From IMG/VR virus record IMGVR_UViG_3300037501_000255: a stretch of DNA of 64,000 nucleotides. One strand, 5' to 3'. Shown in pieces: positions 1 through 64,000 of the stretch. This DNA comes from a virus (Duplodnaviria > Caudoviricetes). Below the pieces are notes generated by a model, which did not search any database, had not been told where the DNA came from, and saw only the letters and a list, made by a program, of their open reading frames with translations. How positions within the stretch are numbered: position 1 is the first letter of the stretch; the number at the start of each line of letters is the position of its first letter. A program made the position numbers and the translations under genes.

Positions 1-3000
1 ACTGATAGTTAAGATCTAGACTCTGCCCCGCTACTACAGATGGTTGACGATCACGCAAGGAGAATCTAACATTATCCATTCTAGCCATTGCATTACCGGT
101 ACCCTCATAAGAGTTGCCTAGCGTAATATTTGCAAGAGTATCTTTAATATCTATATTTGTAGTCATGAAGTTTGAGTCAATTACGCCACTTGATCCGTAA
201 GTGACTCCGATACCGTAGTTGAGGCCGGGCGAACCCCAGGTGATGACACCGCCCTCTACCCCGTCTACCCATAGACGCATACGATCCTTATTATCCTGAT
301 TATTTACATTGTACGTAGCCATTACGCGGTGCCACGTATTTCTAGCCCAACCTATAGGATAGGATATAAGGCTGGTTGATACCGATGAGCGTATTTCGAA
401 ATTAAGGTACCCGTACCCATCCTTGTATATAGATATACGATCGCCAAGAGCATCTATTGGTGTGTATGCTACACTGACCAACGTATTCTGGGTTGGAAGC
501 GCCTGTTTGAGCGTGATCGTTTTGCCGTCCAAGCCTAGTTTACTGTCTTGAGCATAATCTACGCCTGAACCGGTGTCGGTTACAAGACGAATGCTGTTAA
601 TGCTTCGGGCACGATTAATCAACTTGATGGTGTTCCTGGTGATTGAAGTCACCTGTACGGACTGCATGGATGTAATATCCACATAGTATCGTGTGTTTTC
701 CATATCATCATATACGTCAATTGCTGGGCTTATCCAGAATTCTATTGTGCCAGCATCCTGACGTATTATACCATCATCATTAGAGAATATTACAGGCTTT
801 TCACCAGTCAGAACAATGCAGTCTCCAAATGATGCATTGACACTGCGACTATTGGTTAAATATTTTCGATTATATGTCTTATATGTATCAGATGAATTCA
901 ATTGGTTATCATCGAATTGTAATAGAAGTAGCGTTTGAGGTGTTGGGGCGGCCGGTGTGGGCTCCAGATAATATCTTGTTATCGACTTCTCATCGGCAGG
1001 GGGCTCCTCGCCCGCGCGCACGTCCATAAGCATTTCATTTAACATGTGCACTTCATCTATAGTGCCGTTAAGTGCATTATTACCATTTATATCTGTACCT
1101 ATACACAGCTTTCCTTTAGAATCCAACTCTATTGTTAGTGGAGTAGGGTATTCTATCAAATAGAATGTTGGCTCAAGATTGAATGGCAGACCGCCGCTAC
1201 CAAAAATGAGCAGGCGGAAGTTTCCGTTATAGTAACTCAGTATTTGAGCATAGTCTCCATTATTTTCTGAGCGTGTAAGCGATACATCTTCAACGATCTC
1301 CACAGCGCCCAGGGATTCGTACCCATCAAAACCATTAAATGTAAACGCTATAGTGCTGATGGATGTGAAGTAATTTGTTGTTACAAAATTTCCATATCCA
1401 GTAAATGTTACAGTTTCAGCTAATGGTCCAAAACCAAAAACAGTGCCCGTAATTACCGCCTGATTAATGGAGCTGAAGTTTATGTTGTTTGTGCCATGTA
1501 GAGTCAAGCGCAGACGTTTTCCGGCTACAGTATTAGATGGCTGCGGTACAGAGGCGAATGTGCCTGTAATTGTCGTCCCCGATTGGACAAAGTATCCATC
1601 AGTTATATAACCATCAGAATTATCTTCTATAGAAATGCGATCAAATATATATTTGTATATATCAACGTTCAAAAGCGACTGTGGCGGAATAAAGTTTGTT
1701 TTTAATCGATTATCTGATGTATATTTATATATCTTATCTCTGATGCGACCACGCGTCAATCCCAATGTATTGACGAAAACACGATCACCTACCGATACGC
1801 CTGAATTAATTTTGAGAATATTGGAGCCTGCTGTACGAGATACTGTGTATTGCGGATTGGTCGCGCCTAGGCCACGTAACTCTATTGGCTCACCGCCCGC
1901 AGACTGTGTATATACAGCGAATGGCTCGAGATCAATATCCGCTGTCACTGAGAGAGAGAGCTGATTTGCTGTCCAATTCACATTAGATAATGAAAGTGTA
2001 AGTGGAGAGGCTAGAGTTACCTGCGTCTGACTCAATATACTGGTGATTGTGTGTGGGCTCGCCGCGCCATCGCTGGTCGGGTCTAGAATGACAAGCTGAT
2101 CTCCGATATTAATACCGTTCGTGATAAACGCTGCCGAAGAAGACGTAAATATGTTTGACGCTGCGACAGTTACGCCGTCGGCGCCGCCAATTGTATTTTG
2201 CGTGGCAGAGCTTAATATTTCTTCTGTCGCATTTGTACGATAGAGATCAGTGCCTAGGATTGGTGCAGGTTTACCACCGAACTTCCAATTGTTTGCTACT
2301 TCTTGACCATCAATAAATAGATGCATCTCGTCAATGCTATCTGCCGAATTAAATCTCCAAGAGAGTGCAACCTGATGATCTTCTCCTGCTAGCCAACTCT
2401 GAATATTCGCAGAAATGGCATATGCTCGTGGGCGGGCCGGTCGTGTGCGCCCATTTTTATCAAAAACTCTGCCGACAATATAACCTGAACCATCTTTAAA
2501 TAGAGAAATTCTATTATGAGTGGTACTTAGGCCTGTATCAAAAATGTAGTGTATGTTGTCAGATGAAAGGTCTATACCGTCAGACAATAGATATCCGTCT
2601 ACACCATCATATCCGTCGATAGTTGTGGAGAATTTTATATAGTTATCTGTAGTATAGAAAGCGTCAGACACCTCATTGATAAATAGGTTGCTGTCATATC
2701 CATCAGTTATATTGTAGAATTGGCCTGTTGTTGTGATTTCTGTAGTAAAGTCTACACCGTCACTCGCCCAAGCCTGCCAGCGCATCTTCCAACGATTTTC
2801 TATATCATCATACCATATAAAATATCCCTTATCAGTACTTATATTATATGGCCTTCCAATTGGACTATTGGGGTATGGGTCAAAACGTGATACTGTAAAC
2901 GGCATTCCTAATGGATTGAATGCTGTTTCACCTATAAAGATGTCTCCTAATGACAGCGAGTAGCCGTCATTAAGACCATAATTGTAGAACCAATTCATCC

Positions 3001-6000
3001 CATCATATCCGTCGTAGCCGTCGCCTATCGCATAACCATCTTGTGTTATATGGAAGGTGAGTGAGGCGTCGTTGTCTAGACCCCGCCAGTCTGGCGCCAG
3101 AGTTGTAATAAATGTGCCTTCACGGTGTGAGACGTATGCTTCTGCCGGGTATTCTATCAAATCCCCATCGGCTATATGCGCACCGATATTGCGGCCTGCA
3201 GGACGGTATTCTACACTCCCGCCAGTGCGCGGTGGGGCGAGGTATAGGTTGTCACGATCGGCAGTCCATTCGTTGAAATCCAGCTCGCGTATAACCGGGT
3301 CAACCTTAGTAATGCTTGATACCATCTTTGTGATAGCAGCGTTCGTCGGGCCCGTTAGGAATGCCTGAAGGGCGCCGATTACGGCACTGCGATACATCTC
3401 TCGGTCAAAGCTAAGATCGAATGTGGTGAGTTCCGGAATTTGTGTGAGGCTACCAAAGTTAGCCAATAGCGCTTGGCGTAATGCACCATAACGATATGTG
3501 ACGTAGTACTCGTCACCATATGACAGGGTGTCACTTATGCTAAAATCTAGTTCATTATCTCCATATTCATAGCTAACAATTAAACTGTCATAGACATAAT
3601 CATAGTTAAAGAATAGATTTCCAACATCGTAATCTATTAACAATGCATCCCCCGCCGTGAGTGTTGCCACAAGCGGATTTCGCATTGTAATCGTGTTGCC
3701 ACTAAATGTGTCGACTGACGGGTCATAGTAATTTACCAGCTGATGTGCCGGGAGTGTCTGTAATTCGTTTATAGAATAAATACCATTGATGCTACGTATG
3801 TCAAAATTAGTTGCTGCCGTATATCCATCAGAAAAATCAATATCGAATAGTGACCATTGTACTGATTTATCACTATCGGTAAATGGAAGATCTACTACAA
3901 CTGTGTTGGTGGACAGGACTGCTGTGATTTGTCTATCGAAATCATCTGGAAATCTAATGTAGTGATACCCGTCCGCATGCGAGTTGGAGAATGCGGCGTC
4001 CAGAGCCACAAATGTTGTCGATCCAACAGTTCTCTGCCCCTCAACTCCATGCTGTTTCAGACCCAGTATGCTCAACTTATTTGTATTATTTGATAGGAAT
4101 CTTTCTCCAGCTGGAAGAAGCGAGTTAACATCTACATAATCTGATGTATTTGAAAAATTTGCAATGTCATATATTGATTCTGTTACGTTGGTTAGTTTGT
4201 ATGAGACGCTATTGACACCAGATATCCGTGGGCGCTGCGTGTAGTGGCGCGCGTGGGCGTAGTTAATCTCTCCAAATAGTTCATTATCGACATCTGTACG
4301 TAGATATACTGAGCCAGATTCATAATCTATTAAATAGTATCCATCTGAACTTAGCTTTAGCAAGTTTGCTGATAATGTTTGAAGTGCACCATCGTAGAAA
4401 AATTCAGATTGGAATATATCTGTGTTTGTAAAAGAGACTGATGAGTTTACCGGCGAACCTATGTACTTTCCAGTGGCAGAGACAATTTTTGAATTTTTGA
4501 GTTCGAACTTAACTATTTTACTAGTTAATGAAGTCGATACGACTTCGGATACAATTAGATTCTCACCAACAACCCTCTCAAAATCAGCAAATTCATTCTC
4601 GACTGTTTGAATTCTAGGCAGTTGTGAGCCGGATATCTGAATCATATAATCATTGAATCTATTAATCAGATATCTCTCACCAGTAGTTTCGTTGTATACA
4701 CGAAACGCATTTGTTATTGGATAATGCTTTGTGATGATCTTATTTGCAGATAGTAGTCTGTTTTCTACCAGCTCATCTATAACTTCCTTATGTACTAGAG
4801 CTAGATAATCTGTGCCCTCGGCTAGGACAAACTCGTAGTCGAATGTAATTTTTGTATTAGTCAGTCCAATTAGATTTCGCAGTGAAATCGCAGCTAGTTC
4901 ATCGGTATCGGGCTCGAATGTATAGTCTATTCCGCTAATGAAATATTTTCGATACGTATAATTTGCTACCGGCGGCACTCCGCCTGTACCATTATTTGTT
5001 GTAGCGCCATATACGAAGACCTGACCGGTTTCGTAATTAATGCTGTATTCGCCAGGAGCTGATGGGAGGCGAGCCTGATCATAAGCTATTTCTTTATTGA
5101 ACGCTGGGTGAGTTGTGGTGTAAGGAATGCCCGATGGTGGATTTGGATCTAGAAATACCACTCCAGCACTGGTTGCGACCACATCTGAGCTGGTTACAAT
5201 TGGGGCATAATTTAGGAAAAATGTATTCTGAAGAGCTCCTATCGGTTCACGCACTACGCTATTTAATTGTGTAACTGAAACTGTATCTGAATTAACATTA
5301 ACGCCATTATGTATGTATGAATATGATACGACCAGCGTGTCTGTGGGCTGTGGTTCTGGAAAATATCCATCTAGTATTGCTGCTTCAGATAACTTAAATT
5401 GTCTATTTGACAATGTTTGTAGCGACGTGGCATATTGAGTATCATATCTATTGTTCAATACTGAGTACTTATATCTAGGAATATCATATATGTACTCATT
5501 GAAATTAGAATCAATGAGTTTTATAGCATGTATTTGCGCTATATTTGACTTTGATAGTGTTATTATAGTATTTTCGAATGAGTTTGATACAGTTTCAGTG
5601 TTGGAAACGTTTTCCTCTTCAATATATACTGACCTAAGTGAGATCGGATCTGGCGGAAAGGACGATATGACGGGGTTCGCCTTGTAATAATCATCGCCAA
5701 GGAGATTTTGGGCAACACTGGGATCGAATAGTATTGATTTTGTAACCTCTGTGCCCTCGGGAGTTGTTGCTACGCGCAAGACCTCGAAAGCACCTTCGTT
5801 ATTGAGGCGATCTGTCGCCGAATAGCCGCGTTTTTTGATTTCATTGTCTACTTGAACAGATAGGTAGTTTGCATTTCCAGTTTCAAAAATATCGTGGCGT
5901 GCTAGCGACAGCTGTTCGGCCATATTTGCAATATGGTTTCTTACCGGAGTGGGCGATTCGACATCATAAACATCGGGCATATCATCTAGCATTTGCGTGC

Positions 6001-6331
6001 GGAGAGCATTCTCATCCTCAATGCCGATAAAAATGTATTTATTACTATCACCATCTTCCTGTAGTATGTCATTATTTATACTTGTGAATGGCTGAGATGG
6101 CGTGGACTTAAATACTGCAGAATACAATACTAATGGAAATTGCGGAGAAGTGTTTACTGTCAAAACATCGCCAGATACCTCCACTGACTTAACCGTGAGG
6201 GCCGGGATGTTGGCAATATTGGATTCAATCGCAACATTTGCGATGCCTATGGCGCTACTGAGATCATCTGAAAACTGTGCCTGTATTTGTGTAGATGATC
6301 TGTTTAAAAATCTGCGTATTCTAAGGGTCAT
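1..6331 (-). CDS. Very large baseplate wedge-like virion protein with C-terminal LamG/concanavalin-like domains (3' partial, at least 2110 aa)
   Basis: Not in the ORF track, probably because it has no stop inside the window. ATG at 6331 directly follows the TAATAA stops of the upstream gene (MTLRIRRFLNRSSTQIQAQFSDDL...). Hand translation was in frame and stop-free at every region checked (e.g. 2-300, 602-890, 3362-3400, 5770-6331), but not every codon was checked. Contains a wedge-like segment FDREMYRSAVIGALQAFLTGPTNAAITKMVSSIT and LamG-like segments (HQVALSWRFNSADSIDEMHLFIDGQEV; DRMRLWVDGVEGG...ARMDNVRFS). Lies after the baseplate J-like gene. Confidence 0.8.
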   Translation of the reverse strand, partial: MTLRIRRFLNRSSTQIQAQFSDDLSSAIGIANVAIESNIANIPALTVKSVEVSGDVLTVNTSPQFPLVLYSAVFKSTPSQPFTSINNDILQEDGDSNKYIFIGIEDENALRTQMLDDMPDVYDVESPTPVRNHIANMAEQLSLARHDIFETGNANYLSVQVDNEIKKRGYSATDRLNNEGAFEVLRVATTPEGTEVTKSILFDPSVAQNLLGDDYYKANPVISSFPPDPISLRSVYIEEENVSNTETVSNSFENTIITLSKSNIAQIHAIKLIDSNFNEYIYDIPRYKYSVLNNRYDTQYATSLQTLSNRQFKLSEAAILDGYFPEPQPTDTLVVSYSYIHNGVNVNSDTVSVTQLNSVVREPIGALQNTFFLNYAPIVTSSDVVATSAGVVFLDPNPPSGIPYTTTHPAFNKEIAYDQARLPSAPGEYSINYETGQVFVYGATTNNGTGGVPPVANYTYRKYFISGIDYTFEPDTDELAAISLRNLIGLTNTKITFDYEFVLAEGTDYLALVHKEVIDELVENRLLSANKIITKHYPITNAFRVYNETTGERYLINRFNDYMIQISGSQLPRIQTVENEFADFERVVGENLIVSEVVSTSLTSKIVKFELKNSKIVSATGKYIGSPVNSSVSFTNTDIFQSEFFYDGALQTLSANLLKLSSDGYYLIDYESGSVYLRTDVDNELFGEINYAHARHYTQRPRISGVNSVSYKLTNVTESIYDIANFSNTSDYVDVNSLLPAGERFLSNNTNKLSILGLKQHGVEGQRTVGSTTFVALDAAFSNSHADGYHYIRFPDDFDRQITAVLSTNTVVVDLPFTDSDKSVQWSLFDIDFSDGYTAATNFDIRSINGIYSINELQTLPAHQLVNYYDPSVDTFSGNTITMRNPLVATLTAGDALLIDYDVGNLFFNYDYVYDSLIVSYEYGDNELDFSISDTLSYGDEYYVTYRYGALRQALLANFGSLTQIPELTTFDLSFDREMYRSAVIGALQAFLTGPTNAAITKMVSSITKVDPVIRELDFNEWTADRDNLYLAPPRTGGSVEYRPAGRNIGAHIADGDLIEYPAEAYVSHREGTFITTLAPDWRGLDNDASLTFHITQDGYAIGDGYDGYDGMNWFYNYGLNDGYSLSLGDIFIGETAFNPLGMPFTVSRFDPYPNSPIGRPYNISTDKGYFIWYDDIENRWKMRWQAWASDGVDFTTEITTTGQFYNITDGYDSNLFINEVSDAFYTTDNYIKFSTTIDGYDGVDGYLLSDGIDLSSDNIHYIFDTGLSTTHNRISLFKDGSGYIVGRVFDKNGRTRPARPRAYAISANIQSWLAGEDHQVALSWRFNSADSIDEMHLFIDGQEVANNWKFGGKPAPILGTDLYRTNATEEILSSATQNTIGGADGVTVAASNIFTSSSAAFITNGINIGDQLVILDPTSDGAASPHTITSILSQTQVTLASPLTLSLSNVNWTANQLSLSVTADIDLEPFAVYTQSAGGEPIELRGLGATNPQYTVSRTAGSNILKINSGVSVGDRVFVNTLGLTRGRIRDKIYKYTSDNRLKTNFIPPQSLLNVDIYKYIFDRISIEDNSDGYITDGYFVQSGTTITGTFASVPQPSNTVAGKRLRLTLHGTNNINFSSINQAVITGTVFGFGPLAETVTFTGYGNFVTTNYFTSISTIAFTFNGFDGYESLGAVEIVEDVSLTRSENNGDYAQILSYYNGNFRLLIFGSGGLPFNLEPTFYLIEYPTPLTIELDSKGKLCIGTDINGNNALNGTIDEVHMLNEMLMDVRAGEEPPADEKSITRYYLEPTPAAPTPQTLLLLQFDDNQLNSSDTYKTYNRKYLTNSRSVNASFGDCIVLTGEKPVIFSNDDGIIRQDAGTIEFWISPAIDVYDDMENTRYYVDITSMQSVQVTSITRNTIKLINRARSINSIRLVTDTGSGVDYAQDSKLGLDGKTITLKQALPTQNTLVSVAYTPIDALGDRISIYKDGYGYLNFEIRSSVSTSLISYPIGWARNTWHRVMATYNVNNQDNKDRMRLWVDGVEGGVITWGSPGLNYGIGVTYGSSGVIDSNFMTTNIDIKDTLANITLGNSYEGTGNAMARMDNVRFSLRDRQPSVVAGQSLDLNYQ

Positions 6332-6334: not shown

Positions 6335-9300
6335 TTACCTACTATCTTCAACTATAGATACTTCGCCCGGTACTATATATTGATTCCTATCCGCCGATAT
6401 ACTTTTCACTACACCTGTCTTACCTGATAAGTTAAATTTTGTAATCACTACCCTGTCCACTCCTGCAACCTGATATGCGGCACTAATGAGATCGGAGGCA
6501 TCAAGCGTAGTATTTAGACCAGTTGCTGTTGTAAATACTGTTAACGTCTGCTCGACGGACTGGAGAATACTGGATGTGTTTGCCACAGCGTTGCTAGCAA
6601 CCACAATCTTCATACCTATGTCCACCACAAGTGCAGATGCCTGCTTTACTAGCACATCTGCGGTTACAGGTCTTACCTTTTCAATGGCAAAAGTAGAGTC
6701 AGTAATAAGTTTATTGTAATTGTACTTTAATGTTATTCTCTCGCCTTCTTTTGGGGCTGTATAGGTGTACGTAGTGAGGTACCCAGTACCCGAGATGGGC
6801 TGATTCATTCCAGTTATTGTAATGTTGCCTGAAACAATACCGGAGGTATTTGTAAACCCGCTAGCTACGGCAATTGATGATACGTACGCGTACTTATATT
6901 TAGATACATACACGCCTGAGGCGCCGGCCACAAGGCTTTCCGAGTTGTTTGTATCACAGTAGTAGTAGACAACGCGTAGCTTTTGGCCTGTGGTAAATGA
7001 GTTATCTAGGTTGCTCTGCGTCTCCGACAAAGATATTTGCGTACGCGATAACAGGCTATTTACGAAACCTGTACCGTCAGAATATCTATTATCTAACAGC
7101 TCATAATTTAATGTATCGAATGAGAAATCTACGCTGCTCACGGTGTCATTTGCGACCGTAACTCTCTCCACCGATTCAAGTCTTGCAACAAATCCGCTCG
7201 CTGGAATATTTGACAATCCAAGTGAGTTTAATATACTTGATTGTAGATCTAGCGCTAAACCATTCTGCGTGACAGTTACAATGTCCTCAACCTTTTGCAA
7301 GGTATGTCCTATAATTGTTAGCCTTCCTCGACTTGGTGTGCCTTGTAGATTAATTCGCAGATATGATGGCGCATATCTTAAATTACGCACTATAGTTGAG
7401 CCAGAGTAAAGATTGGTTATAGGCTGTATGCCTGATGTTATGAGCGCTACAGTAAATGCATTTTGATTTCCTGTTGCCGGTAGCGACAGGAGTGATGTTG
7501 TCGGAAGTATAGAGGTTATGTCTGCCACGTAACTTACGTACATGGTCGTGCCTATCGGTAAATCGCTTACATTTGGCAGCTTAACCTGTGTACCTGTGAA
7601 TGTACCAAGATCATATCCGTCTGGAGAAAACCGGTCTGTAACATTATACTTTACCGTGGCGGCGGCGCCAAGTGGCAGAGTCGTGTCTGTAGGTAGCGTA
7701 ATTTCACTACCAGTATAAGAGCCATTGCTTAGCTTTGTATAGAACACCTCTTTATTGACATCATCTACGATGCTTAATATGTTAACAATCGGCGTAGAGA
7801 CTGTTATCTTACCGCCCACATTTGCGGATACCTCTTCCTGTATCGTACTTACATCTATAACTCGCGATACTGGATGAGTGACCGTAACATAGTAACCGTC
7901 AACCGTGGAGTATAGGAGGAGTTCTTCTTCAAGTTCTACTCTGTTTGAGAAGCCCCAATCTATGGAATCCTGCACTGTTCTGAAGTTACTTAATGCGGAT
8001 AGGTCATCAAAATCAATATCTGGATCATATATATTATCCCATAGATAACTTACTTCTATATTGTCAGTTGCTACAGGAAGAGTATTTCCAGCAATCGTAA
8101 TTCTGCCTGTGGTATTAGCCTCGCCTACCGCGCCATCTGGATTAGAATTCGAGACGGTATATCTCTCACCGGTTGTGGCATTGTAGACGCGATCAACCGC
8201 TATTATTGGGACGTGTTGTAGGGTTAGCGTTGCTCGATCCGTAGAGGAGAGTGTAGCTGCTTCATTCTTGAGTGTTATTTGCTGGTGGATATTTGGAAAT
8301 GATTGTACATCACTAAATGTTGTGGCGTCTTGGCCATTAAAGATGCCCTTTATGATCACTTCATCTTCCAATTTTATATTGTTACTTATCCATCGTAATT
8401 TATCAAATCCGAATGGACTGCTACCAAAAGCTCCGGTATCAGCTACGAGCTCGAAATTGCCAACCTCATTGCCGCTCTCATCAATATACTTCTGAATGAA
8501 ATTAGCGCCTGATGAACCGCCACTTACAGAAAGTATCTCTAGAACCGGCTGTAGCGGAAGCGTGCCTGCACGAATCGATTCCCGACGGCGCTGCTGGAAG
8601 TTGAGAGCAGTACTTATACCGCGCTGCCCTAAAATATAGTCATTTTTAGCATCTGTAGGGTCGCCTTTCCCACTAAGGTCTTTGTATATATATGACTCTA
8701 TTGCCTCTTCTGTGGCCTGACCCTGAATATAGAGATCTACTTTGCCGCCCGTGCCGGGGTCTACAACAATCTTCTTGCCGGAAGAGTCCACTGAAACTTG
8801 AGTGCCGTCACGGGTCATGAGGGGATCTCCAGGTTCTACGGCTAAAACATCTACAACTCTGGTATCGGCTCTTAGTGTATTGATGTAACCCAGCGCCGTT
8901 CCTATATTTGAGCCGGCAAAGATGCTGAGTATCCTAGCCCTGAAAGTAGCATCGCTTTCAACATTGGCACCGCCAGAAAATGTCTCAAGATTTGTAACTG
9001 CAGAAATTCCTGGCACACTGGCACTTGTCAGAGAATATTTGCTTATATTGCCGGCAGCACCTGGACTTACTGCCTCAACTGGCACCTCTATAGCATATTC
9101 ATCGGTAATTCCTGCAGTATCCAATTCTAATCGCAGTCTGGAAGCATTTGCCGCATATACTCCCGAATTAGATACGGACATCGTAGCTGCTATCATAGTA
9201 CGGAATCGTACGCCACTGCGTGAGGTGACTGCCGTATTTGCAGGTATAGCGATATCTGAATCTAGTGCTGTAGCCGTGAATACGGCTACTCCGCTTGCAG

Positions 9301-9553
9301 CGGCCCCACCGCCTCGTGTGGCGGAAAAGTTTGATGCCAAACGATCTAGACTGGAGCCCGTCGCGGTCGCGTAGGATTGTAGATTTGCTATGCTGCGCAA
9401 GTCGGCGTATAGGCGCGAAATCTCCTGTGCTGCAGGGTCTACAGCCACATCGCGAAAAACCGTACCTGGCTTTGTGTCTGCATTCGGCTGCAATAGCCTT
9501 ATATTATCCAACATTGAAAGTATAATGCTATCTAAACTTCTGAAATTAGCCAT
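6335..9553 (-). CDS. Baseplate J-like (gp47/T4 gp6-like) wedge protein with large internal insertion, 1072 aa
   Basis: N-terminus DTKPGTVFRD...LDRLASNF...RGGGAAASGVAVF...NLETFSGGANVESDATFRARI and C-terminal VRPVTADVLV...VAGVDRVVI match baseplate J architecture; directly follows the gp25-like gene. Confidence 0.85.
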   Translation of the reverse strand: MANFRSLDSIILSMLDNIRLLQPNADTKPGTVFRDVAVDPAAQEISRLYADLRSIANLQSYATATGSSLDRLASNFSATRGGGAAASGVAVFTATALDSDIAIPANTAVTSRSGVRFRTMIAATMSVSNSGVYAANASRLRLELDTAGITDEYAIEVPVEAVSPGAAGNISKYSLTSASVPGISAVTNLETFSGGANVESDATFRARILSIFAGSNIGTALGYINTLRADTRVVDVLAVEPGDPLMTRDGTQVSVDSSGKKIVVDPGTGGKVDLYIQGQATEEAIESYIYKDLSGKGDPTDAKNDYILGQRGISTALNFQQRRRESIRAGTLPLQPVLEILSVSGGSSGANFIQKYIDESGNEVGNFELVADTGAFGSSPFGFDKLRWISNNIKLEDEVIIKGIFNGQDATTFSDVQSFPNIHQQITLKNEAATLSSTDRATLTLQHVPIIAVDRVYNATTGERYTVSNSNPDGAVGEANTTGRITIAGNTLPVATDNIEVSYLWDNIYDPDIDFDDLSALSNFRTVQDSIDWGFSNRVELEEELLLYSTVDGYYVTVTHPVSRVIDVSTIQEEVSANVGGKITVSTPIVNILSIVDDVNKEVFYTKLSNGSYTGSEITLPTDTTLPLGAAATVKYNVTDRFSPDGYDLGTFTGTQVKLPNVSDLPIGTTMYVSYVADITSILPTTSLLSLPATGNQNAFTVALITSGIQPITNLYSGSTIVRNLRYAPSYLRINLQGTPSRGRLTIIGHTLQKVEDIVTVTQNGLALDLQSSILNSLGLSNIPASGFVARLESVERVTVANDTVSSVDFSFDTLNYELLDNRYSDGTGFVNSLLSRTQISLSETQSNLDNSFTTGQKLRVVYYYCDTNNSESLVAGASGVYVSKYKYAYVSSIAVASGFTNTSGIVSGNITITGMNQPISGTGYLTTYTYTAPKEGERITLKYNYNKLITDSTFAIEKVRPVTADVLVKQASALVVDIGMKIVVASNAVANTSSILQSVEQTLTVFTTATGLNTTLDASDLISAAYQVAGVDRVVITKFNLSGKTGVVKSISADRNQYIVPGEVSIVEDSR

Positions 9554-9561: not shown

Positions 9562-9993
9562 CTATATCTGTATATCAAAGACTTCACGGATAACGCTTCC
9601 CTTTTTCGTTGTGACATCAATAACAATGTTATATTGCCGTGCATCATAAAGACTTCGCTGTACCTTTACATTCAATATTTGACTTAGCTGCTCATTTGGC
9701 GTTAGGTACTGTCCGTCTTTCAGCTGTAGTGCCTGGAGTTTCATCAAATTCGTCAAACAGAAATTTACAGCATCAGCTACCTCTGTTTCTAGAATATTAA
9801 ATGGCATTGCTTTGCCGATCACTCTGTCCCCCAACGGGCTCCCATACCACGGATTAAGTGCGGAGCTGCCTTGAGAGGTTAGAAGTATCTTTACGATATC
9901 TTGTTTTAGCTTGTCTTCATTGAAGATACGCTGAAGGGCGCCGTCGGAGCCGAAGCTGAAAGAGCCGTTGACTAGTTTAAGATCAAATGACAT
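9562..9993 (-). CDS. Baseplate wedge subunit / sheath initiator, gp25-like, 143 aa
   Basis: KLKQDIVKILLTSQGSSALNPWYGSPL motif, typical size, and position immediately upstream of baseplate J. Confidence 0.85.
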   Translation of the reverse strand: MSFDLKLVNGSFSFGSDGALQRIFNEDKLKQDIVKILLTSQGSSALNPWYGSPLGDRVIGKAMPFNILETEVADAVNFCLTNLMKLQALQLKDGQYLTPNEQLSQILNVKVQRSLYDARQYNIVIDVTTKKGSVIREVFDIQI

Positions 9994-9997
9994 GCAC

Positions 9998-20182: not shown

Positions 20183-20191
20183 ATACTACCT

Positions 20192-21160: not shown

Positions 21161-21175
21161 ATGTGCTCCGATACT

Positions 21176-23813: not shown

Positions 23814-23819
23814 AAAAAA
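23743..23819 (-). other. Programmed -1 ribosomal frameshift signal: U UUU UUA slippery heptamer plus predicted H-type pseudoknot
   Basis: Heptamer at 23819-23813 is in the reading frame of the chaperone gene. After a 5-nt spacer (AAGAG): stem 1 CUGACC (23807-23802) / GGUCAG (23784-23779) and stem 2 CUCACCG (23791-23785) / CGGUGAG (23749-23743). Confidence 0.8.
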
Positions 23820-41877: not shown

Positions 41878-41881
41878 ATTT

Positions 41882-44899: not shown

Positions 44900-44907
44900 C
44901 TATAACC

Positions 44908-46998: not shown

Positions 46999-47038
46999 TC
47001 TAGCCCCTCGATACCACTATTCTTTAATATTGATATGG

Positions 47039-49111: not shown

Positions 49112-49117
49112 AATCCC

Positions 49118-52296: not shown

Positions 52297-52406
52297 TTAT
52301 TTGCGCATCAGTTATGATCATATTATTATATAGCATTATGCCTCTAACTGCAACATTTGTTGTAATAGCATTTGCTTCACTATAACCCAAGAAATTGCAG
52401 CGCCTA

Positions 52407-53784: not shown

Positions 53785-55848
53785 CTATAGAATTGCAGAT
53801 GCTGCGACGAGACTGGTGGGGTATGTGTATATCTCATGAGTTTTATCGAGTTTGCGCACTGTAAGAGTTTGCTTTCCATCATCACCAAATAGTATTCTAT
53901 TTCTCTCAACATTTAGTACTTCATATCTAAATTCTTCTATTGGTATCTCACCAGGATCTATTGGAAGATACCTGACAATTATATCTCTCTTTTTTATAGT
54001 TGGTATGGCTGGTGCCCAAATTGTAATTTCATCCGTCTGAGATAGGCCGCGATATTGTATTAGCGGAATATCGTTCCTGTACGGCTGGACGCGCATTGCA
54101 ATTAACCCATTTGGATTTTCGATATTTGGCCTATATAGGCGCTGGTATAGATAGCGATCGTATCCTCCCAGTATTCTGGTGCCATAACACAAAGCACAGC
54201 GTTCGGCGCTATGCTCGCCTCTTATCGAGTATCTGGGGCATTGCTGGCCTGTCGTTTTGGCCCGTAATAGCATGAATGGTTCGCCGGTAGTGGAGAGTAG
54301 GAGTTCTTCTCTGCGCAGGTTGGCGTCGGTCAGGCGCACACCTCCACCGAATCCGTCTTCGCGTCCACCAAAATACGTGCTACACTTATTACCGGTATAT
54401 AAGTTAACTAGCGTAGTAGTATTTGCCTTGTATGTTCCACAAAGCTCATCTTGCGAAGTAAAGTCGATGTTCTCTGTTTCGAATTCCGAATGATCTTCGT
54501 GCAGATTGTCTACCTGCCATGCGCGATAGCCGTCAGGATCCTGCATGGAGGCATATCCATCTGGATCATTTGGATCTGGGGGTAGCCACGGTGAATTCGA
54601 TCCTGCATCCCATGTCGGCACAGCAAACTGGAAGCTAAGATTTATATCTTCTATTCCCTTAAATAGTTCGACTGCAGTTCCGTTTGCATGCGTCTCGAGA
54701 TTTCCCAATGAAAACGCATCTCTCTGAGAAATAGTGAATGATGTTGTGGTTTTGCTTGAGTACGCCACCACCTCATGGCCGAGTTTTAGATACCCAGAAG
54801 TAGGGAAGCCTGCTGTATCCGGTGCAACTGTGAGTGTGAGTTCGTCACTGTTGAAATACCCGTCCAGATGATTGACTGCTACAGCTGCAGGATACTCATA
54901 ATAATCTGGGCCGGGTGTGTTTAGCTGCGTGATTGGCTGATCTTCGGGATAGTACGTGGCGCGAACAGCAAAATAATAGCCGTCGCCTCCGTGTAATCCA
55001 ACTACTGCCACACTTAGCGCATCTGTAATTGCCTTCGGCGTATCGAATAGGCCATCAAGAGTAGTACTCCAATAAACGTTGTAGTACGTTTTGCTTAGTC
55101 CTGTCGGTGTTAATGCCGGTTTCCAATGAGTTTTGATGACCGAGCCTAGTCCCAAATCTTCGGCAAATTGTATGCCCGGTCTGAATGGATCCGCCCATGT
55201 GGGCAGATCAAAGGAGCAGGCTGAGGTGCGCTGGAAAAATACAGTGTTGCCCTCTTCGAATCCTTTAAAAAGCGACACTGCGTATCCAGCAGGGAATGTG
55301 TAACCGTCGTTACATCCAAATGGATTCCAATTTGATATTATGAATGCTGGATTTCCTGAACTGATACCTATCGATGAGTATAGTACAATCTCATCTCCAA
55401 TTTGTACATAGCCATCAGTAAGTGGAAATCCGGCTGTAGATGTGACTTCTAGCGCTGCCGTATTCAGTAGTGTGGAGAATGACGCGACGCTTGTGGGAGG
55501 GGCTGGATAAGCGTATGCTGTGGCATTTATAGCCATGTTGCTGAGTAGAGAAAAATCCTCGGCTACGCCCATCTGCGTCGCGCGGACAGCAAAGTAGTAG
55601 CCGTCGTTGGCTAGTGTGTAGGGTATATCTGCAGTTAACCTATCGATTGCAAATGCGCGTGGCTGGTCAAAAAGCTCGATGGGATCGTCGGACCAGTAAA
55701 TGTTATAGAAAACGAATGGGGCAGCTGGCGATGGTTGTGCCTGCGCCCAGGCAATCGTTGTTTTCTGTAACGCAATATTCTCTACCGCGCTATTAAGGCC
55801 TACTCGGTAAGGGTTTGTCCAGAGCGGTGTGGGTAGGTAACATATCAT
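53785..55848 (-). CDS. Neck / head-closure protein with Cys (zinc-ribbon-like) core and duplicated N-terminal FN3-like accessory domains, 687 aa
   Basis: C-terminal GEPFMLLRAKTTGQQCPR...RCALCYGTRILGGY...IWAPAIPTIKKRDIIVR...YEVLNVER resembles head-closure proteins of large myophages; two ~190-aa repeats containing YN(I/V)YWS and DGYYFAVRAT. Confidence 0.65.
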   Translation of the reverse strand: MICYLPTPLWTNPYRVGLNSAVENIALQKTTIAWAQAQPSPAAPFVFYNIYWSDDPIELFDQPRAFAIDRLTADIPYTLANDGYYFAVRATQMGVAEDFSLLSNMAINATAYAYPAPPTSVASFSTLLNTAALEVTSTAGFPLTDGYVQIGDEIVLYSSIGISSGNPAFIISNWNPFGCNDGYTFPAGYAVSLFKGFEEGNTVFFQRTSACSFDLPTWADPFRPGIQFAEDLGLGSVIKTHWKPALTPTGLSKTYYNVYWSTTLDGLFDTPKAITDALSVAVVGLHGGDGYYFAVRATYYPEDQPITQLNTPGPDYYEYPAAVAVNHLDGYFNSDELTLTVAPDTAGFPTSGYLKLGHEVVAYSSKTTTSFTISQRDAFSLGNLETHANGTAVELFKGIEDINLSFQFAVPTWDAGSNSPWLPPDPNDPDGYASMQDPDGYRAWQVDNLHEDHSEFETENIDFTSQDELCGTYKANTTTLVNLYTGNKCSTYFGGREDGFGGGVRLTDANLRREELLLSTTGEPFMLLRAKTTGQQCPRYSIRGEHSAERCALCYGTRILGGYDRYLYQRLYRPNIENPNGLIAMRVQPYRNDIPLIQYRGLSQTDEITIWAPAIPTIKKRDIIVRYLPIDPGEIPIEEFRYEVLNVERNRILFGDDGKQTLTVRKLDKTHEIYTYPTSLVAASAIL

Positions 55849-58483: not shown

Positions 58484-59377
58484 TCAGATTATCTGTTTTT
58501 CTCGTAAATGCTTAAGCCTCAAAACGGCTGGATTTCTTGCAAACAAACTGCCGGCACTCATACCGAGCGGGGCCGGGCGCATGTTGTGCTTCGCCTCTCT
58601 CAGCTTTGCGCGGTAATCCGATAGGTGTGCATTAAACATCGTAGTTATCGTGCTGCTGACTGGGGGCGGCTGTAGCGCTACACCGTTGTCATTTATGGAG
58701 AATTCCCTACCAGATTCTAGTATGGCCTGGCCTGTCCACGCTTGCAGCATAGCCCCCTGCGTAAGTATATCTGCGAACAACGTTCGCGTTAACATATCAT
58801 CAAACGTGTACCCGGTTATTGTCGGGGTAAGGTTGAATTCTGAAAGTGAAGTGCATAGGAATTGGAAGAGATCTTCTGTAGAGAAGACGTCGCACTTAGA
58901 TCCGTCCGGCTTAAATGCTGTGCTACGAAGGCGGGATTTGAGCATCTTCAATAATACGTTTATATTTGCTTTCGCTTGTTCAGAAAACTCTACTAGGGAT
59001 GGCCATGGGTCATCACCGATCTCTATAGTTGGATCTACTACAGTACCGACAGCCTGGATGGCTCCGGCAGAGTTGACTGTAAAATTAAAGGTGGCGCTTA
59101 GGGTATAGCCGTCTACGGAGCCGTACCATACATCAGTCCATACACCGGAGGTGTACCCATCCGGTACGGTAAGCTCGTATCTGTAGCGGCCCGGGCCGAT
59201 CCACTCTACGCCTGTCGAACTTAGGGCTCGGATTGGTGTGCCGGCTGCATCAAATATAGCCAGCGAAGGATTGGTGTCTGCATCTTTCTGTGTACCGGCC
59301 ACATCTGTAAATTGCACATCTAGGCGAAGCTCCTCGCCTACCGGAACAGCGTCGCGGTTGTAGGTATAACGCGCCAT
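58484..59377 (-). CDS. Head-tail adaptor (neck) protein with N-terminal Ig-like accessory domain, 297 aa
   Basis: Core FSTEDLFQFLCTSLSEFNLTP...QAILESGREFSINDNGVALQPP resembles adaptor proteins of large phages; N-terminal beta-sandwich (GPGRYRYELTVPDG...WTDVWYG). Confidence 0.6.
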   Translation of the reverse strand: MARYTYNRDAVPVGEELRLDVQFTDVAGTQKDADTNPSLAIFDAAGTPIRALSSTGVEWIGPGRYRYELTVPDGYTSGVWTDVWYGSVDGYTLSATFNFTVNSAGAIQAVGTVVDPTIEIGDDPWPSLVEFSEQAKANINVLLKMLKSRLRSTAFKPDGSKCDVFSTEDLFQFLCTSLSEFNLTPTITGYTFDDMLTRTLFADILTQGAMLQAWTGQAILESGREFSINDNGVALQPPPVSSTITTMFNAHLSDYRAKLREAKHNMRPAPLGMSAGSLFARNPAVLRLKHLREKQII

Positions 59378-60488: not shown

Positions 60489-63400
60489 TTATGTAACAGT
60501 CCATGTACCCACCACGGAAACCGCAATCCATTCTGTGGTATTAATTGCCATAAGTTTTATGACGTTTCCAATTGTCGTTGCTTCTGCGGTACCACCGGAG
60601 GCTGATACCGTGCCGGCTATGCGTATTGTGTCCCCGGCAGCTGCTGTAATCTGAATTCCGTCAGCATCTTGCACAATAAAGGTGTACTCCAAACCGGGAA
60701 CGGCATCAGGGAGATTGAAGTTCACCTCTGCTGAGGCCCCCTCATTTGTGTATGCGGTACGAGAGTCGGAGGCTGTAGGACTTACATTTGCAGCAGTCTG
60801 AGCGCTGACTGGCACTTCTAGATATGTGTATTTGGCATGAATGCTGTTGAAACGCCTCGAAGCAGTGCCTACATCACCATGGCCGTCAGTCAGTGGAATT
60901 AGATCATAATCCCCTTGCATTTCTAGATTGCCGCCATCAAGGAATTTCCAAATAGCTGCGCCATTATCCCTAAGCCATAAGGGGTCTTCAGCGACGGTAA
61001 GATTATCAATATCTAGTGTTGCGCCGTGAGAGCCGGCAGAGCGATTAACCCCAACCCTGGCCGTGCCGGCATCAACAAGAAACAAATCTGGCCTGGTACC
61101 TGAGCCCTCGACCCTGAAGTCGACGTTGGCTGCATTATCATTAAAGACAATCTCAGTAGACCCAAACCTATTGATTCCAGAACCATCAGCAATAGTGAAG
61201 ACGGTGGTGCCGTTGTCGCGAGCCAAGAGGATAGGCGCTGCGACGTTTCCGTTGTCTGCAATCAGTGCAGCGGACGTGGTCACCGTAGGCGTGAACTGAA
61301 TAAGGTTGTCTGTCAGGAAGAACAATCCAGCAGTTCTGTTTGTGACACCGGCCGCGACGATGGCGGCTCCGGCGACAGCCATCATGGTTCCGGTAGTTGC
61401 TGTGCTGTACGCCTTTCCGAGCAGACCGATGTTCAGCGTTGAGGAGCCTTGTGCATCGGCAACCATGCCGACGTTGTAACCCGCAGTAGATCCCGAGGAA
61501 CCGGCCCACGCACCGTAGTTACCTGCTCCGAAGTAGTTGTTGATATCGAATACGTTTGCTCCGGTTCCAGTGATGCTGGAAAACGTAGCGAAGCTAATCT
61601 TCGGCCCACTACCAGAACCAGAAGTAGTAATGACCGCGCCGGATTGCGTAGTGGTCGCCGAGTTGAGCGTACTCGTGACACGCAATGCGTTGACGCCATC
61701 AGGCAAAGAACCGGCTTGGATATCAACAAAATGTCCGGGAGAGCTGGTGCCAATACCAACTCGATCAGTCGAAGCGTCGACGAACAGCAGGTTAGCGTTT
61801 GTGTCCCCCTCAACGCGGAAGTCGTAGTTGTTGCCGGGGTCGTTAACGACGAGCTCCGTAGTCGTCAACCGCGCTCGCTCTGCGTTGTTGGTACCAATGA
61901 CAATGGGACTTGCTTCGTTGGTGCCGATGAGAAGCGCTGCGGTTCCAAGACCTGATTGCAAGAGTTCGGCTGAGTTAGCGAGCGCCTGACCAAACCGAGT
62001 ACCTGGGAATGCGGTGCCATAGTTCCGCATCGCCATAACTGACGCGCCGTCAGAGTAGAGGCGAACCTCACCACCGGAAGCACTGTTGGTATTCTCGACG
62101 ATCAGTGAGTACCGGGCTGGGTCGGTCGATCGAACATAGACTTTGGCGGTGGCGCCAATGGTTGACGTACCGATGCCGAGAGCGTCGTTGGTGTCGTCCC
62201 AAAACAGGTTTGAAGGATCTGCTGAGAATGCCCCTGCGTTATTGAACTGAATTGCGCCCGTTGATCCGGCGGCGGCGGATGGAGTAGTTGCGGTTATCAT
62301 CCGAGTGCCATCAGGAAAAACAAATCCTGATCTTGGTATTACATAACCGTCAGATGATATCTTAGCTTGATAGGTATGTCCGTCACTAAATGACAGATAT
62401 CCATCATTGTAGATCTCTATCGCCCAATCCGCCGATATATATCCATCAGTTTCTGATGGAAGCGCTACTAGATGTAGCGAAGTCGGTCCGAAGTATCCAT
62501 CCTTCCATCTATAGGTTGGCGAGCCGAGACTGTACGCGTCATCTTCTAGTGGAATTAAGTCTACATTTATCGCTGTAGGTAGTAGATTAGATAGGTATCT
62601 ATTTGCTCCGCTTGAAACTGCTGAGGTGGCAATCCACGTTGATCCATCGCTATATTCTAATTCTGCGCCGCTCCAACGTATTGCGCCTGCTCCGGCCGAT
62701 ACAGCGGAGGCTGGTGTATAGCTCACTTTTGCAAATCCGGCAAAGTATCCATCTCCTGCTACATCCAATATATAGCTTGGGGAATTAGTGCCAATCCCTA
62801 CTCTGCCCAGCGCATCTACCAAAATTCTACTATTTAGCGATGTAGTCCCTGATGCAACTGTCTTGATATCGAAGGTGGTACCGAAATCTGAGCCGCTCCA
62901 TGAGCTAGCTGCTGCAATCTCAATACTGGCGCCAACATTAAAAGCCGAACTATCGTATCCATAGAAATCATGACGACCCAGTATAGTGCCGGCTGTAACT
63001 TCAGCAGATAGAGACTCTGTGCCTTCAGCTCTGTAGTGTGAAAGGACATGCGTGTCGGATTGTGTATTTGAGTACACTGTCCCGCGATATTCTGTTGGTG
63101 CTGATTCACGCAGCATTTGTGCCGTGCGTGTTAGATGAATATCTTGCCATCTCAGCGTCGCAGAGCCTATATCATAACTGTCCGTACTGGCTGGTAGCAA
63201 CGACGTATTTATACTCGTCGTAGTTAGATTTGAGAGAGCTGTGTTTGCTGCATTACCACTAGAGGCTGCGGTAATACGACCTTTACTGTCTACGGTAATA
63301 TTTGCAAATGTGTACGAGCCTGGGGATACGCTTGTTGTGTCAAGTGCCAGCGTCGCATTACCGCCGGGACCACCATCAACGAGTGTTAGATCGCCAGATG

Positions 63401-64000
63401 CTGGTGTAAGAACCCGTTCTTGTGTTAGCGTAGCATCTGTAGTTAGTGTTAGATAGTGCGCGGTAGCTGGGGCAGGCGATGCACCCGCTATCGCTGAAGT
63501 AATCCTGCCCTGTGCGTCAATGCTTAATTGTGGATTTGTATATGAGCCGGGGGATACTCCAGTAGAGGCAAGTCCTACCGTGACCGCTGCGCCGGGGCCG
63601 CCGTCGGCTATGGTTATCTGACCCGCCGCACCTGTCAATACGCGCTCTTGTGTTAGCGTGCCGTCGGCAACAAGAGTTACGTACTGCGCTGTTGTTGGCG
63701 CTCCACCTCCCCCGCCGCCAGTCTGCGCTGCCCATCTAACTCCTGTGGTTTGAGTAGAGTCCGCAGTGAGTACATATCCGTCAGCGCCAATCCCAATACG
63801 TGTATTGCCGAATGCTGTTCTGACTACTATATCACCTTTAGTTGTAGTTGGAGCTAAAGCATCGAATGCTGTGGCAGCGGAGGTCTGTCCTGTACCACCT
63901 TTTGATATTGGCAGTGTTCCGCTTATATTTCCAAGTGTAAGTGCAGATTCTACGACATCGATATCTATCTCATTATTGCCCGAATCAAGTGTAACTGAAA
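60489..64000 (-). CDS. Long tail fibre protein (5' partial, at least 1169 aa)
   Basis: The track start at 63638 is an internal TTG; I translated the frame by hand and it stays open to the window edge (...TLPISKGGTGQTSAATAFDALAPTTTKGDIVVR...GADGYVLTADST...). Contains repeated VDxxGRIT and VGIGTxSP fibre units and a C-terminal tip domain. Confidence 0.8.
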   Translation of the reverse strand, partial: SVTLDSGNNEIDIDVVESALTLGNISGTLPISKGGTGQTSAATAFDALAPTTTKGDIVVRTAFGNTRIGIGADGYVLTADSTQTTGVRWAAQTGGGGGGAPTTAQYVTLVADGTLTQERVLTGAAGQITIADGGPGAAVTVGLASTGVSPGSYTNPQLSIDAQGRITSAIAGASPAPATAHYLTLTTDATLTQERVLTPASGDLTLVDGGPGGNATLALDTTSVSPGSYTFANITVDSKGRITAASSGNAANTALSNLTTTSINTSLLPASTDSYDIGSATLRWQDIHLTRTAQMLRESAPTEYRGTVYSNTQSDTHVLSHYRAEGTESLSAEVTAGTILGRHDFYGYDSSAFNVGASIEIAAASSWSGSDFGTTFDIKTVASGTTSLNSRILVDALGRVGIGTNSPSYILDVAGDGYFAGFAKVSYTPASAVSAGAGAIRWSGAELEYSDGSTWIATSAVSSGANRYLSNLLPTAINVDLIPLEDDAYSLGSPTYRWKDGYFGPTSLHLVALPSETDGYISADWAIEIYNDGYLSFSDGHTYQAKISSDGYVIPRSGFVFPDGTRMITATTPSAAAGSTGAIQFNNAGAFSADPSNLFWDDTNDALGIGTSTIGATAKVYVRSTDPARYSLIVENTNSASGGEVRLYSDGASVMAMRNYGTAFPGTRFGQALANSAELLQSGLGTAALLIGTNEASPIVIGTNNAERARLTTTELVVNDPGNNYDFRVEGDTNANLLFVDASTDRVGIGTSSPGHFVDIQAGSLPDGVNALRVTSTLNSATTTQSGAVITTSGSGSGPKISFATFSSITGTGANVFDINNYFGAGNYGAWAGSSGSTAGYNVGMVADAQGSSTLNIGLLGKAYSTATTGTMMAVAGAAIVAAGVTNRTAGLFFLTDNLIQFTPTVTTSAALIADNGNVAAPILLARDNGTTVFTIADGSGINRFGSTEIVFNDNAANVDFRVEGSGTRPDLFLVDAGTARVGVNRSAGSHGATLDIDNLTVAEDPLWLRDNGAAIWKFLDGGNLEMQGDYDLIPLTDGHGDVGTASRRFNSIHAKYTYLEVPVSAQTAANVSPTASDSRTAYTNEGASAEVNFNLPDAVPGLEYTFIVQDADGIQITAAAGDTIRIAGTVSASGGTAEATTIGNVIKLMAINTTEWIAVSVVGTWTVT

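Follow-up and report, generated by a model that had tools for sequence, protein, structure and literature searches.

Why does a single tripeptide, Asp-Gly-Tyr (DGY), recur so often in the tail and fibre proteins encoded by this DNA? The window, by which we mean the whole stretch of 64,000 nucleotides that was analysed, comes from an uncultured freshwater giant phage with a genome of ~368 kb, of which 97 kb were annotated. Translation of the window's 32 minus-strand ORFs (20,659 aa) yields 64 in-frame DGY, where within-protein shuffles yield 4.11 ± 1.99 (maximum 12 in 2000 shuffles; z ~30). The excess is ~15-fold over chance, and DGY is the only outlier among all tripeptides. Near-variants are scarce (DGF 4, NGY 1, DGW 0). 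Each of the remaining five orders of D, G and Y is seen 3–8 times, which is background, and a composition bias resembling that of the binding loops of antibodies was rejected on this ground. A preliminary description of this DNA had put the total at ~63 against an expectation of 4–5, with DGF at ~4 and NGY rare; the translated counts agree with these figures, and the excess persists against composition-matched shuffles.

Could the excess be an artefact, produced by composition, by a DNA-level motif or by the repetition of one domain? This reading is already refuted by the shuffles (4.1 ± 2.0 vs 64 observed) and by the frame counts. The coding frame has 64 matches to the nucleotide pattern GAYGGNTAY, the two remaining frames of the sense strand have none and the antisense strand has one; therefore selection acts on the peptide and not on the DNA, and a restriction or methylation site can be set aside because the pattern is confined to the coding frame. 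The 13 codon combinations in use match the free codon variation, and the peptide-level selection, that had been proposed earlier. Over 210 non-redundant sites the flanks are unrelated, as had also been claimed in arguing that no single domain is repeated; hydrophobic residues are slightly favoured at −3 to −1, and so is Gly at +1, where it is the commonest residue. One diverged repeat domain was rejected as the source because the flanks are unrelated and because FN3, LamG-like, sheath and other folds carry the motif, with many independent origins.

Which proteins carry it? All the genes listed in this paragraph are on the minus strand, and the earlier per-gene counts all recur in the translation, the one lower bound ('at least 14', for the ORF at 2..6331) becoming 15. 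That ORF encodes a giant distal baseplate/fibre protein with LamG/ConA-like jelly-roll domains, which is 2195 aa long in the full genome, its C-terminus lying beyond the window edge; its DGY include runs at residues 1098–1122 and 1239–1245. The adjoining 1072-aa baseplate wedge protein (gp6/J-like; 6335..9553) has 2 DGY, both outside the conserved N-terminal wedge domain, where phrog_6 matches residues 5–288. The inner tail block (9562..25169), made up of gp25-like, hub or unknown proteins, a 1658-aa tape-measure-like protein and a 226-aa tube-like protein, has 0 DGY. The motif returns in the 854-aa tail sheath (25197..27761), with 3 DGY (residues 184, 425 and 480) in its variable middle region, and in a 258-aa virion protein (27840..28616) whose single DGY is kept in 22 of 47 homologues. 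Two large fibre or spike proteins follow, one of 2038 aa (29118..35234; 6 DGY) and one of 1569 aa with a weak beta-helix signal (35245..39954; 5 DGY). Beyond these lie proteins of 183, 1005, 696, 690 and 701 aa (41326..51223; 1, 3, 1, 3 and 4 DGY, respectively), for which no Pfam family was found, and proteins of 275 and 456 aa (51469..53777; 1 and 4 DGY). The 687-aa protein at 53785..55848 has 7 DGY and consists of an FN3 array in its N-terminal ~410 aa, a low-confidence linker and a C-terminal Cys-rich domain. Last come a 297-aa protein (58484..59377; 2 DGY) and a fibre protein of at least 1169 aa that continues past the window edge (60489..63998; 6 DGY). PHROGs and Pfam left most of the structural proteins without a name and lent no support to the earlier names 'Kelch', 'neck' (the 687-aa protein), 'adaptor' and 'terminator'; an atlas search with a 161-aa ORF was uninformative.

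The motif is partitioned by compartment. Outer virion proteins of the source phage contain 69 DGY in 17 proteins vs 3.3 expected, and the remaining 59 proteins (17,304 aa) contain 0 vs 2.3 expected. Comparing structural with non-structural genes, a test put forward in the preliminary description, accordingly gave no DGY among the replication and metabolism proteins (~10,000 aa), and the inner tail proteins (~3,400 aa) have none either. No DGY was found in the homologues of the tube (61), of a 322-aa protein (30) or of the tape measure (12).

The pattern extends well beyond the source phage. Many uncultured jumbo phages, which make up a large clade, share it, with DGY enriched 7–17-fold around related sheaths. 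In the complete 442-kb genome of one relative, G001, the tail module has 39 DGY vs 3.5 expected, and the 270-kb non-structural part is normal (DGY 16, with 8.9 expected; DGF 13; NGY 13). Of two cultured phages taken as controls, T4 shows DGY at only ~2–3-fold, and Bacillus phage G shows no enrichment (3 vs 1.8 expected). Megablast against cultured phages gave no match, and at the protein level the only match to them was the C-terminus of the phage G sheath. The core proposal of the preliminary description, a selected short linear signal on exposed virion proteins, has come through the shuffles, the comparison of compartments and the survey of relatives, where the enrichment is common to the clade. 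We read DGY as a selected short linear motif whose sites lie on parts of the virion that are probably exposed to solvent: outer domains of the sheath, the periphery of the baseplate, and FN3 and LamG-like domains of the fibres.

The sites themselves are under purifying selection and are also repeatedly gained. Between proteins at 82–91% identity, 24 of 25 sites are kept, where ~59% would be expected for a tripeptide. Over longer distances DGY sites have been gained, lost and inserted in loops repeatedly: one family has ~37 DGY columns with 5–10 DGY kept per protein, and 12 different columns carry DGY among 49 sheath homologues. At DGY columns the count of residues that match has a bimodal distribution (three, 355; two, 143; one, 413; none, 471). 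The Tyr of DGY, when replaced, becomes F or W in 9–10% of cases, compared with 30–34% for other Tyr, the rest being polar, small or gaps; Tyr, not Phe, is required in DGY.

The commonest two-of-three variants (DSY, DAY and DEY) keep D-x-Y, and this favours the idea that DGY serves as a tag for covalent docking or cross-linking, in which Asp, rendered succinimide-prone by the adjoining Gly, would be joined through an isopeptide bond to a lysine in a partner or in a neighbouring subunit; SpyTag-type D-A-Y strands and capsid chainmail are analogues. Asp-Gly is known to be reactive, SpyTag has its D-A-Y motif, and DGY sites tend to follow a hydrophobic beta-strand. We nevertheless regard a covalent tag as very unlikely: the outer proteins are lysine-poor (2.2% vs 6.0%), no catcher-like partner was found, and no observation requires a covalent bond of this kind.

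More weight falls on the structural setting of the motif. In the aligned segment of the 2..6331 protein half of the DGY are in lineage-specific loop insertions, and in the LamG-like segment, at window positions 2282–3184, 52% of DGY fall in mostly-gap columns vs 7% of all residues. A Foldseek search of the PDB with a DGY-dense segment returned no match; VIA-align of the segment indicated a LamG-like fold, with Z 8–9 to LG domains and also a match to CBM40. When DGY was mapped onto structures, as had been suggested, the outcome was divided. DSSP places DGY sites in loops or at strand ends, and at several of them D-G is in the turn and Y at the strand edge. Two sites of the 687-aa protein, DGY82 and DGY289, are buried at the 'P-x-T-x-Y' tyrosine-corner position of FN3 domains, with the Tyr kept in homologues; since these are two of its seven DGY, part of the signal is structural.

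Could all of it be structural? DGY would then be a self-contained loop motif with no reader or writer, in which a Gly turn, where a beta-strand begins or ends, is held between Asp and the hydroxyl of Tyr, the Greek-key tyrosine corner being included. Such a clamp would lend stability to the exposed loops of extracellular proteins that have to last, and in this lineage it would have spread by selection for rigid or protease-resistant loops together with module shuffling among fibre genes. Apart from the sites just described, a need for the Tyr hydroxyl would equally account for the exclusion of Phe, and the mild 2–3-fold excess in T4 occurs in tail proteins with no known modification. The tyrosine corner of Greek-key beta-sandwich domains, said to have been set out by Hemmingsen et al. 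in 1994, has the consensus L-x-P-G-x-Y, or P-x-T-x-Y in FN3, and resembles DGY in requiring Tyr and not Phe; the two FN3 sites of the 687-aa protein lie exactly there. Unlike the tyrosine corner, most DGY lack a core-facing pattern, and many are in insertions absent from homologues. Across the 210 sites hydrophobicity at +2/+4 is 0.29/0.33 vs a background of 0.33, so that most sites are without the i+2/i+4 hydrophobic alternation of a core-facing Tyr. Motif-free homologues carry polar or small residues or gaps at these positions, and therefore the folds do not need DGY; it is likewise hard to see packing motifs in the tandem runs of DGYDGYDG or in sites that fall within low-confidence linkers. 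Nor does a structural loop account for an enrichment of 13–30-fold in one clade and in outer proteins only, when beta-rich inner tail proteins are without DGY in every homologue and other proteins of the same genome have DGY, DGF and NGY at similar levels. On this balance we consider a purely structural role somewhat unlikely.

The same loops could instead be binding sites. DGY sites lie in loops of LamG/ConA-like and FN3 domains, which are classic ligand-binding scaffolds, many of them in inserted loops, and sugars and metals are typically bound by residues such as Asp and Tyr. Thousands of copies of a non-covalent micro-site, on lectin-like and FN3 loops and on the sheath, might provide weak multivalent adhesion to polysaccharide, to metal (Fe(III), Ca(II)) or to a decoration protein. 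Binding loops, however, are usually biased in composition and not built on one strict ordered tripeptide, and here the other orderings are at background; the sheath and small virion proteins that are no obvious adhesins carry DGY as well, and no partner was identified. We judge a binding role unlikely.

The explanation that we favour, tentatively and at somewhat less than an even chance, is that DGY acts as an acceptor sequon at which an enzyme encoded by the phage glycosylates the virion, the residue modified being probably Tyr. First, a strict motif is over-represented in the outer proteins and not in the others, in the source phage and likewise in G001. Second, a candidate enzyme is linked to it: the gene for a glycosyltransferase of CAZy family GT4, whose members are retaining enzymes with a GT-B fold, comes immediately downstream of the fibre genes richest in DGY, and no terminator-like site was found between them. 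The GT4 is recognised by PF00534 (40.1 bits, cut-off 26.4) as well as PF13692 and PF13439, with relatives scoring up to 152 bits, and in an alignment of 10 sequences neither glutamate of the E-x7-E motif of its C-terminal domain (E265, E273) varies. It is at the same relative position in 9 of 10 large relatives, and a fibre homologue immediately precedes it in 53 of 53 full-flank loci. Across 74 GT4 loci the upstream 10 kb have 704 DGY vs 54 expected and the downstream 10 kb have 13 vs 27, a depletion that rests on homologous, non-independent genes. Neighbouring genes in the source phage comprise two GNAT genes, one nucleotidyltransferase-like gene and one 4,6-dehydratase-like gene.

In the mechanism that we propose, the Asp-Gly turn would present the Tyr hydroxyl in a loop, the phage-encoded cytoplasmic GT4 would act as writer by transferring a sugar to that hydroxyl, the adjoining nucleotide-sugar genes would supply the sugar in the source phage, and the outcome would be a glycan coat over tail and fibres. 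Covalent attachment, Tyr as the acceptor and the GT4 as writer are what we infer from motif and gene order. Extended to the clade, the proposal is that these jumbo phages coat the whole outer tail, baseplate and fibres with glycan by way of the DGY Tyr and a cytoplasmic GT4; this broader form is possible, and we hold it a shade more loosely. GT4 enzymes act mostly on sugars and lipids, and therefore the targets of this one could instead be DNA or the glycans of the host envelope; we know of no glycosyltransferase described with a DGY sequon.

The preliminary description had suggested looking for glycosyltransferase, PIMT-like or kinase genes and asking whether their presence tracks DGY enrichment. 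A glycosyltransferase was indeed found beside the DGY-richest genes; no PIMT (PF01135) was found in five large relatives, of which two are complete, and every control genome was positive, and a protein kinase passes its family cut-off in 2 of 5 relatives only, sporadically. As to tracking, GT4 and DGY enrichment co-occur throughout the clade, and no relative was found with one and without the other; the GT4 being clade-wide, there is no presence/absence covariation. A sulfotransferase (sporadic, in 1 of 5 relatives) and an FAD oxidoreductase near GroES (a generic Rossmann-fold match only) were also rejected as candidates.

How does the proposed sequon compare with known systems? Bacteroidetes use the sequon D-(S/T)-(A/I/L/V/M/T), and the Campylobacter PglB enzyme uses D/E-x-N-x-S/T. 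Like DGY, these are three to five residues long, start with an acidic residue and lie in exposed loops, and their sites come and go while the number is kept. They differ in being served by membrane oligosaccharyltransferases that act outside the cytoplasm on Ser/Thr or Asn, unlike the cytoplasmic GT4 proposed here. The Bacteroidetes pattern D[ST][AILVMT] itself is not enriched (56 vs 71.6 expected). Capsid and tail-tube subunits are reportedly what Freeman et al. found to be modified in mycobacteriophages in 2023. Virion glycosylation in these phages (Freeman et al. 2023, Cell Host Microbe, ref. 80 in PMC12582341) offers a parallel in gene order: phage cytoplasmic glycosyltransferase genes end the structural block, as here, and virion surface proteins are the proposed targets. 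It is not known to involve a tripeptide sequon or a Tyr linkage, and the tube here is without DGY.

Tyr O-glycosylation exists in prokaryotes (PMC2943079). The Gram-positive S-layers of Paenibacillus alvei (SpaA) and Thermoanaerobacter provide the precedent of a stable O-glycosidic bond to Tyr on a surface array (PMC2943079). They have few sites per protein and no reported DGY consensus, and their glycan is moved en bloc from a lipid carrier by an O-OTase in the membrane, where we propose a soluble GT4; no membrane O-oligosaccharyltransferase or lipid-carrier assembly gene was seen in the 97 kb annotated of the ~368-kb genome. Among the matches of the phage GT4 is GT4 B736L of chlorovirus NY-2A (PDB 3oy2; E = 9e-6, at family level only). 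Chloroviruses resemble our proposal in that a virion protein is modified at non-canonical sites by cytoplasmic glycosyltransferases of the virus itself; they are eukaryotic viruses with N-linked glycans on the major capsid protein, unlike the Tyr-linked tail glycans proposed here.

In the literature searched we found no description of a strict tripeptide that is 13–30-fold enriched and confined to exposed virion proteins. If the glycosylation sequon is real, it would be a new acceptor code in which Tyr is presented by an Asp-Gly turn, the first protein-glycosylation sequon for a bacterial virus and the first Tyr-directed sequon anywhere; giant phages would glycan-shield their tails, and DGY would be a compact, portable tag for site-specific protein glycosylation. 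This hypothesis is directly testable without cultivating the phage. If DGY is instead a self-stabilising or binding micro-motif, it would be an unusually clear case of convergent linear-motif gain across unrelated folds, and a practical marker for predicting the virion-exposed proteins of uncultured giant phages.

Avoidance of DGY in cytoplasmic proteins might be expected if the cytoplasmic enzyme were promiscuous, and its lack in those of G001 counts against the sequon; the 270-kb non-structural part of that genome (16 vs 8.9 expected) gives no support to avoidance as a general feature. Hints of cytoplasmic avoidance do appear in the source genome (0 vs 2.3) and downstream of the GT4 (13 vs 27).

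Every long ORF in the window is on the minus strand. Translation of the 32 ORFs (20,659 aa) gave 64 copies of the tripeptide Asp-Gly-Tyr (DGY), a near-exact match to the per-gene counts of the preliminary description. The enrichment it had noted persists against composition-matched controls: 2000 rounds of within-protein residue shuffling yielded 4.11 ± 1.99 DGY (maximum 12), and among all tripeptides DGY is the single clear outlier (z ~30). The motif is strict at its three positions. D-G is followed by Tyr 64 times and next most often by Ser or Thr (16 each), G-Y is preceded by Asp 64 times and next by Ser (7), and each of the five other permutations of the three residues is seen 3-8 times. 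The near-synonyms were as scarce as first described (DGF 4, NGY 1), and DGW does not occur in these ORFs. We also observed that G-Y lacking the preceding Asp is under-represented in the outer proteins of the window, that is, the exposed tail, baseplate and fibre proteins (31 vs 50.5 expected).

DGY is encoded by 13 codon combinations, and GAYGGNTAY matches the window at 64 in-frame positions, at none in the two other sense frames and at one on the opposite strand; the signal thus resides in the peptide, as had been proposed from its varied codons. The flanks had been called unrelated, and across 210 non-redundant sites, drawn from this phage together with its relatives, only two weak preferences were found, for hydrophobic residues at -3 to -1 (0.41-0.45 vs 0.33) and for Gly at +1 (20%).

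The preliminary description had placed the motif in virion appendage and surface proteins, and in the 97-kb record of this phage it is limited to them: 17 proteins (14,675 aa) carry 69 DGY vs 3.3 expected, and the other 59 (17,304 aa) carry none vs 2.3 expected. The DGY-free proteins fall into two groups: those of the inner tail block (window 9562-25169; gp25-like, tube-like, 1658-aa tape-measure-like and others) and, elsewhere in the 97-kb record, all replication and metabolism proteins (TubZ, UvsW, DnaB, RNR, ThyA, DHFR, PhoH and GroES). In the sheath (25197..27761) and the J-like wedge protein (6335..9553), DGY sites fall outside conserved core regions. Lys (2.2% vs 6.0%) and Glu (3.5% vs 6.4%) are strongly depleted in the proteins that bear DGY, and Ser, Thr, Asn and Gly are abundant in them.

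A sheath search of IMG/VR found 57 loci, many on contigs of 300-440 kb; ORFs near related sheaths showed 7-17x DGY enrichment at sheath identity of at least 43%, and weaker enrichment for more distant sheaths. For one complete relative (G001, 441,904 bp), an ORF set was reconstructed for counting alone. Its tail module has 39 DGY vs 3.5 expected (DGF 6, NGY 5); its 270-kb non-structural part looks ordinary, with the three tripeptides at similar levels (DGY 16 vs 8.9 expected, DGF 13, NGY 13). A separate cluster of three unnamed genes, ~40 kb from the tail module (L083 4472-9133; 270.5-275.1 kb), has 13 DGY vs 0.6 expected (DGF 1, NGY 0). Its neighbours are thymidylate kinase, methionine aminopeptidase, PhoH and RNR genes. 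Its products (420, 384 and 753 aa) probably represent additional virion or fibre proteins whose genes lie outside the tail module. The annotated tail and head proteins of T4 contain 6 DGY (~2-3x), and in Bacillus phage G the tail module holds 3 vs 1.8 expected. Strong enrichment is therefore clade-specific and, in members of the clade, specific to the outer virion proteins.

Among orthologues at 82-91% identity, 24 of 25 DGY are retained, vs ~59% for a generic tripeptide. At longer distances individual sites turn over, yet their number is maintained. Every full-length member among 38 homologues of the 687-aa protein (53785..55848, minus strand) has 5-10 DGY, down to 41% identity, where 0.2 is expected; these are spread across ~37 alignment columns, few widely retained and many sporadic, with position 439 kept in 36 of 38. 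Sheath homologues have 0-4 DGY each, across 12 columns. D, G and Y tend to be gained and lost together: residues matching at DGY columns are bimodally distributed (three, 355; two, 143; one, 413; none, 471), and the two-of-three forms are DSY, DAY, DEY, DGS and DGA, almost never NGY or DGF. Where the Tyr is replaced, Phe or Trp accounts for 9-10% of substitutions vs 30-34% for other tyrosines; polar or small residues and gaps make up the rest. Where DGY is dense in the giant baseplate/fibre protein (2..6331, minus strand), 52% of the DGY of that segment lie in columns gapped in most homologues; these columns hold 7% of all residues and 8% of other tyrosines.

The main rival to the glycosylation sequon favoured below is that DGY is a self-stabilising loop motif. 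In the AlphaFold model for the 687-aa protein (pLDDT 81), FN3 domains form an N-terminal array, and DGY 82 and 289 occupy the FN3 'P-x-T-x-Y' tyrosine-corner position, their Tyr retained in homologues; these two are ordinary structural tyrosines. For them the earlier concern that the Tyr is a packing residue was justified. Three further DGY of this protein are placed in loops or at strand edges, and the best-conserved site, 439, is in a low-confidence linker. The model for residues 1050-1350 in the giant protein (pLDDT 82, pTM 0.80) resembles LamG/ConA-like jelly rolls (Z 8-9); all seven of its DGY fall in loops or at strand ends, and for several of them the loop is an insertion modelled at low confidence. 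The tyrosine-corner sites and the mild T4 excess favour the self-stabilising explanation; however, it gives no account of the clade and compartment specificity, and we think it unlikely.

The last two DGY-rich fibre genes are followed downstream by a GT4 glycosyltransferase gene. Its product exceeds the Pfam threshold, and E-x7-E is invariant. In this genome a 161-aa ORF (L058 3901-4386; 65900-66385 of the 97-kb record, just beyond the window) intervenes, starting 11 nt past the last fibre gene and overlapping the GT4 start by 4 nt, and no terminator-like site was found between that fibre gene and GT4. This ORF is missing from the closest relative and from all 53 related loci, and is therefore probably a recent insertion; in an atlas structure search its sole similarity, a weak one, was to DUF559-type endonucleases. 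After GT4 come two GNAT acetyltransferases, a nucleotidyltransferase-like protein and a 4,6-dehydratase-like SDR, accessory genes common to this phage and its closest relative only. The window's phage has one GT4 with nucleotide-sugar genes; other relatives have a tandem GT4-GT4 fusion or a second, adjacent GT4 gene, as at L062 in G001 and L071 in G007, another relative. The fusion at L062 418-2682 spans 754 aa, and its first half gives a 'GT4-conflict' match in Pfam.

GT4 occupies the same relative position in nine of ten large relatives. In a survey of 80 IMG/VR loci (31-79% identity), a fibre homologue lies directly 5' of GT4 in all 53 loci with full flanks, and across 74 loci, which are homologous and not independent, the 10 kb upstream hold 704 DGY vs 54 expected and the 10 kb downstream 13 vs 27. 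In five large relatives PCMT is absent, a sulfotransferase occurs in one and a protein kinase above the family cut-off in two, so that GT4 is the only consistently linked enzyme. Where the preliminary description had looked to an enzyme gene that tracks DGY, GT4 shows co-occurrence and not covariation, because it is universal in the clade.

The strictness of the three residues, the restriction to exposed virion proteins of one clade, purifying selection paired with recurrent gain and loop insertion, the avoidance of Phe and the conserved neighbouring GT4 agree in direction, and DGY is best explained as a motif read by a clade-specific factor. Tentatively, we favour a predicted Tyr-directed glycosylation sequon. 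Tyr O-glycosylation has prokaryotic precedent (PMC2943079), and virion glycosylation by phage enzymes has a mycobacteriophage precedent among the works cited in PMC12582341. DGY could instead be a non-covalent binding micro-site, which seems to us distinctly doubtful, or a covalent docking tag, which we regard as highly improbable.

The DNA comes from a freshwater metagenome. An identical copy of the 687-aa protein is on a 367,953-bp contig; this is therefore a jumbo phage, and the 97-kb record, in which no capsid, portal or terminase gene was found, is a fragment, beyond whose end the window extends by 1147 nt (62854-64000). The 80-97 kb part of that record (L059) encodes a TubZ-like tubulin, UvsW, DnaB, class I RNR, a sigma-70 region-2 protein, PIN-PhoH, RNase HII, Tmk, ThyA, DHFR, an amidase, LysM-SLT, an FAD oxidoreductase and GroES. 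Two LAGLIDADG-type homing-endonuclease ORFs, both DGY-free, were also seen: the first, 404 aa long, has a NUMOD-like C-terminus and lies within the structural block (window 57205-58419, minus strand), and the second is amid the nucleotide-metabolism genes (91860-92972 of the 97-kb record, minus strand).
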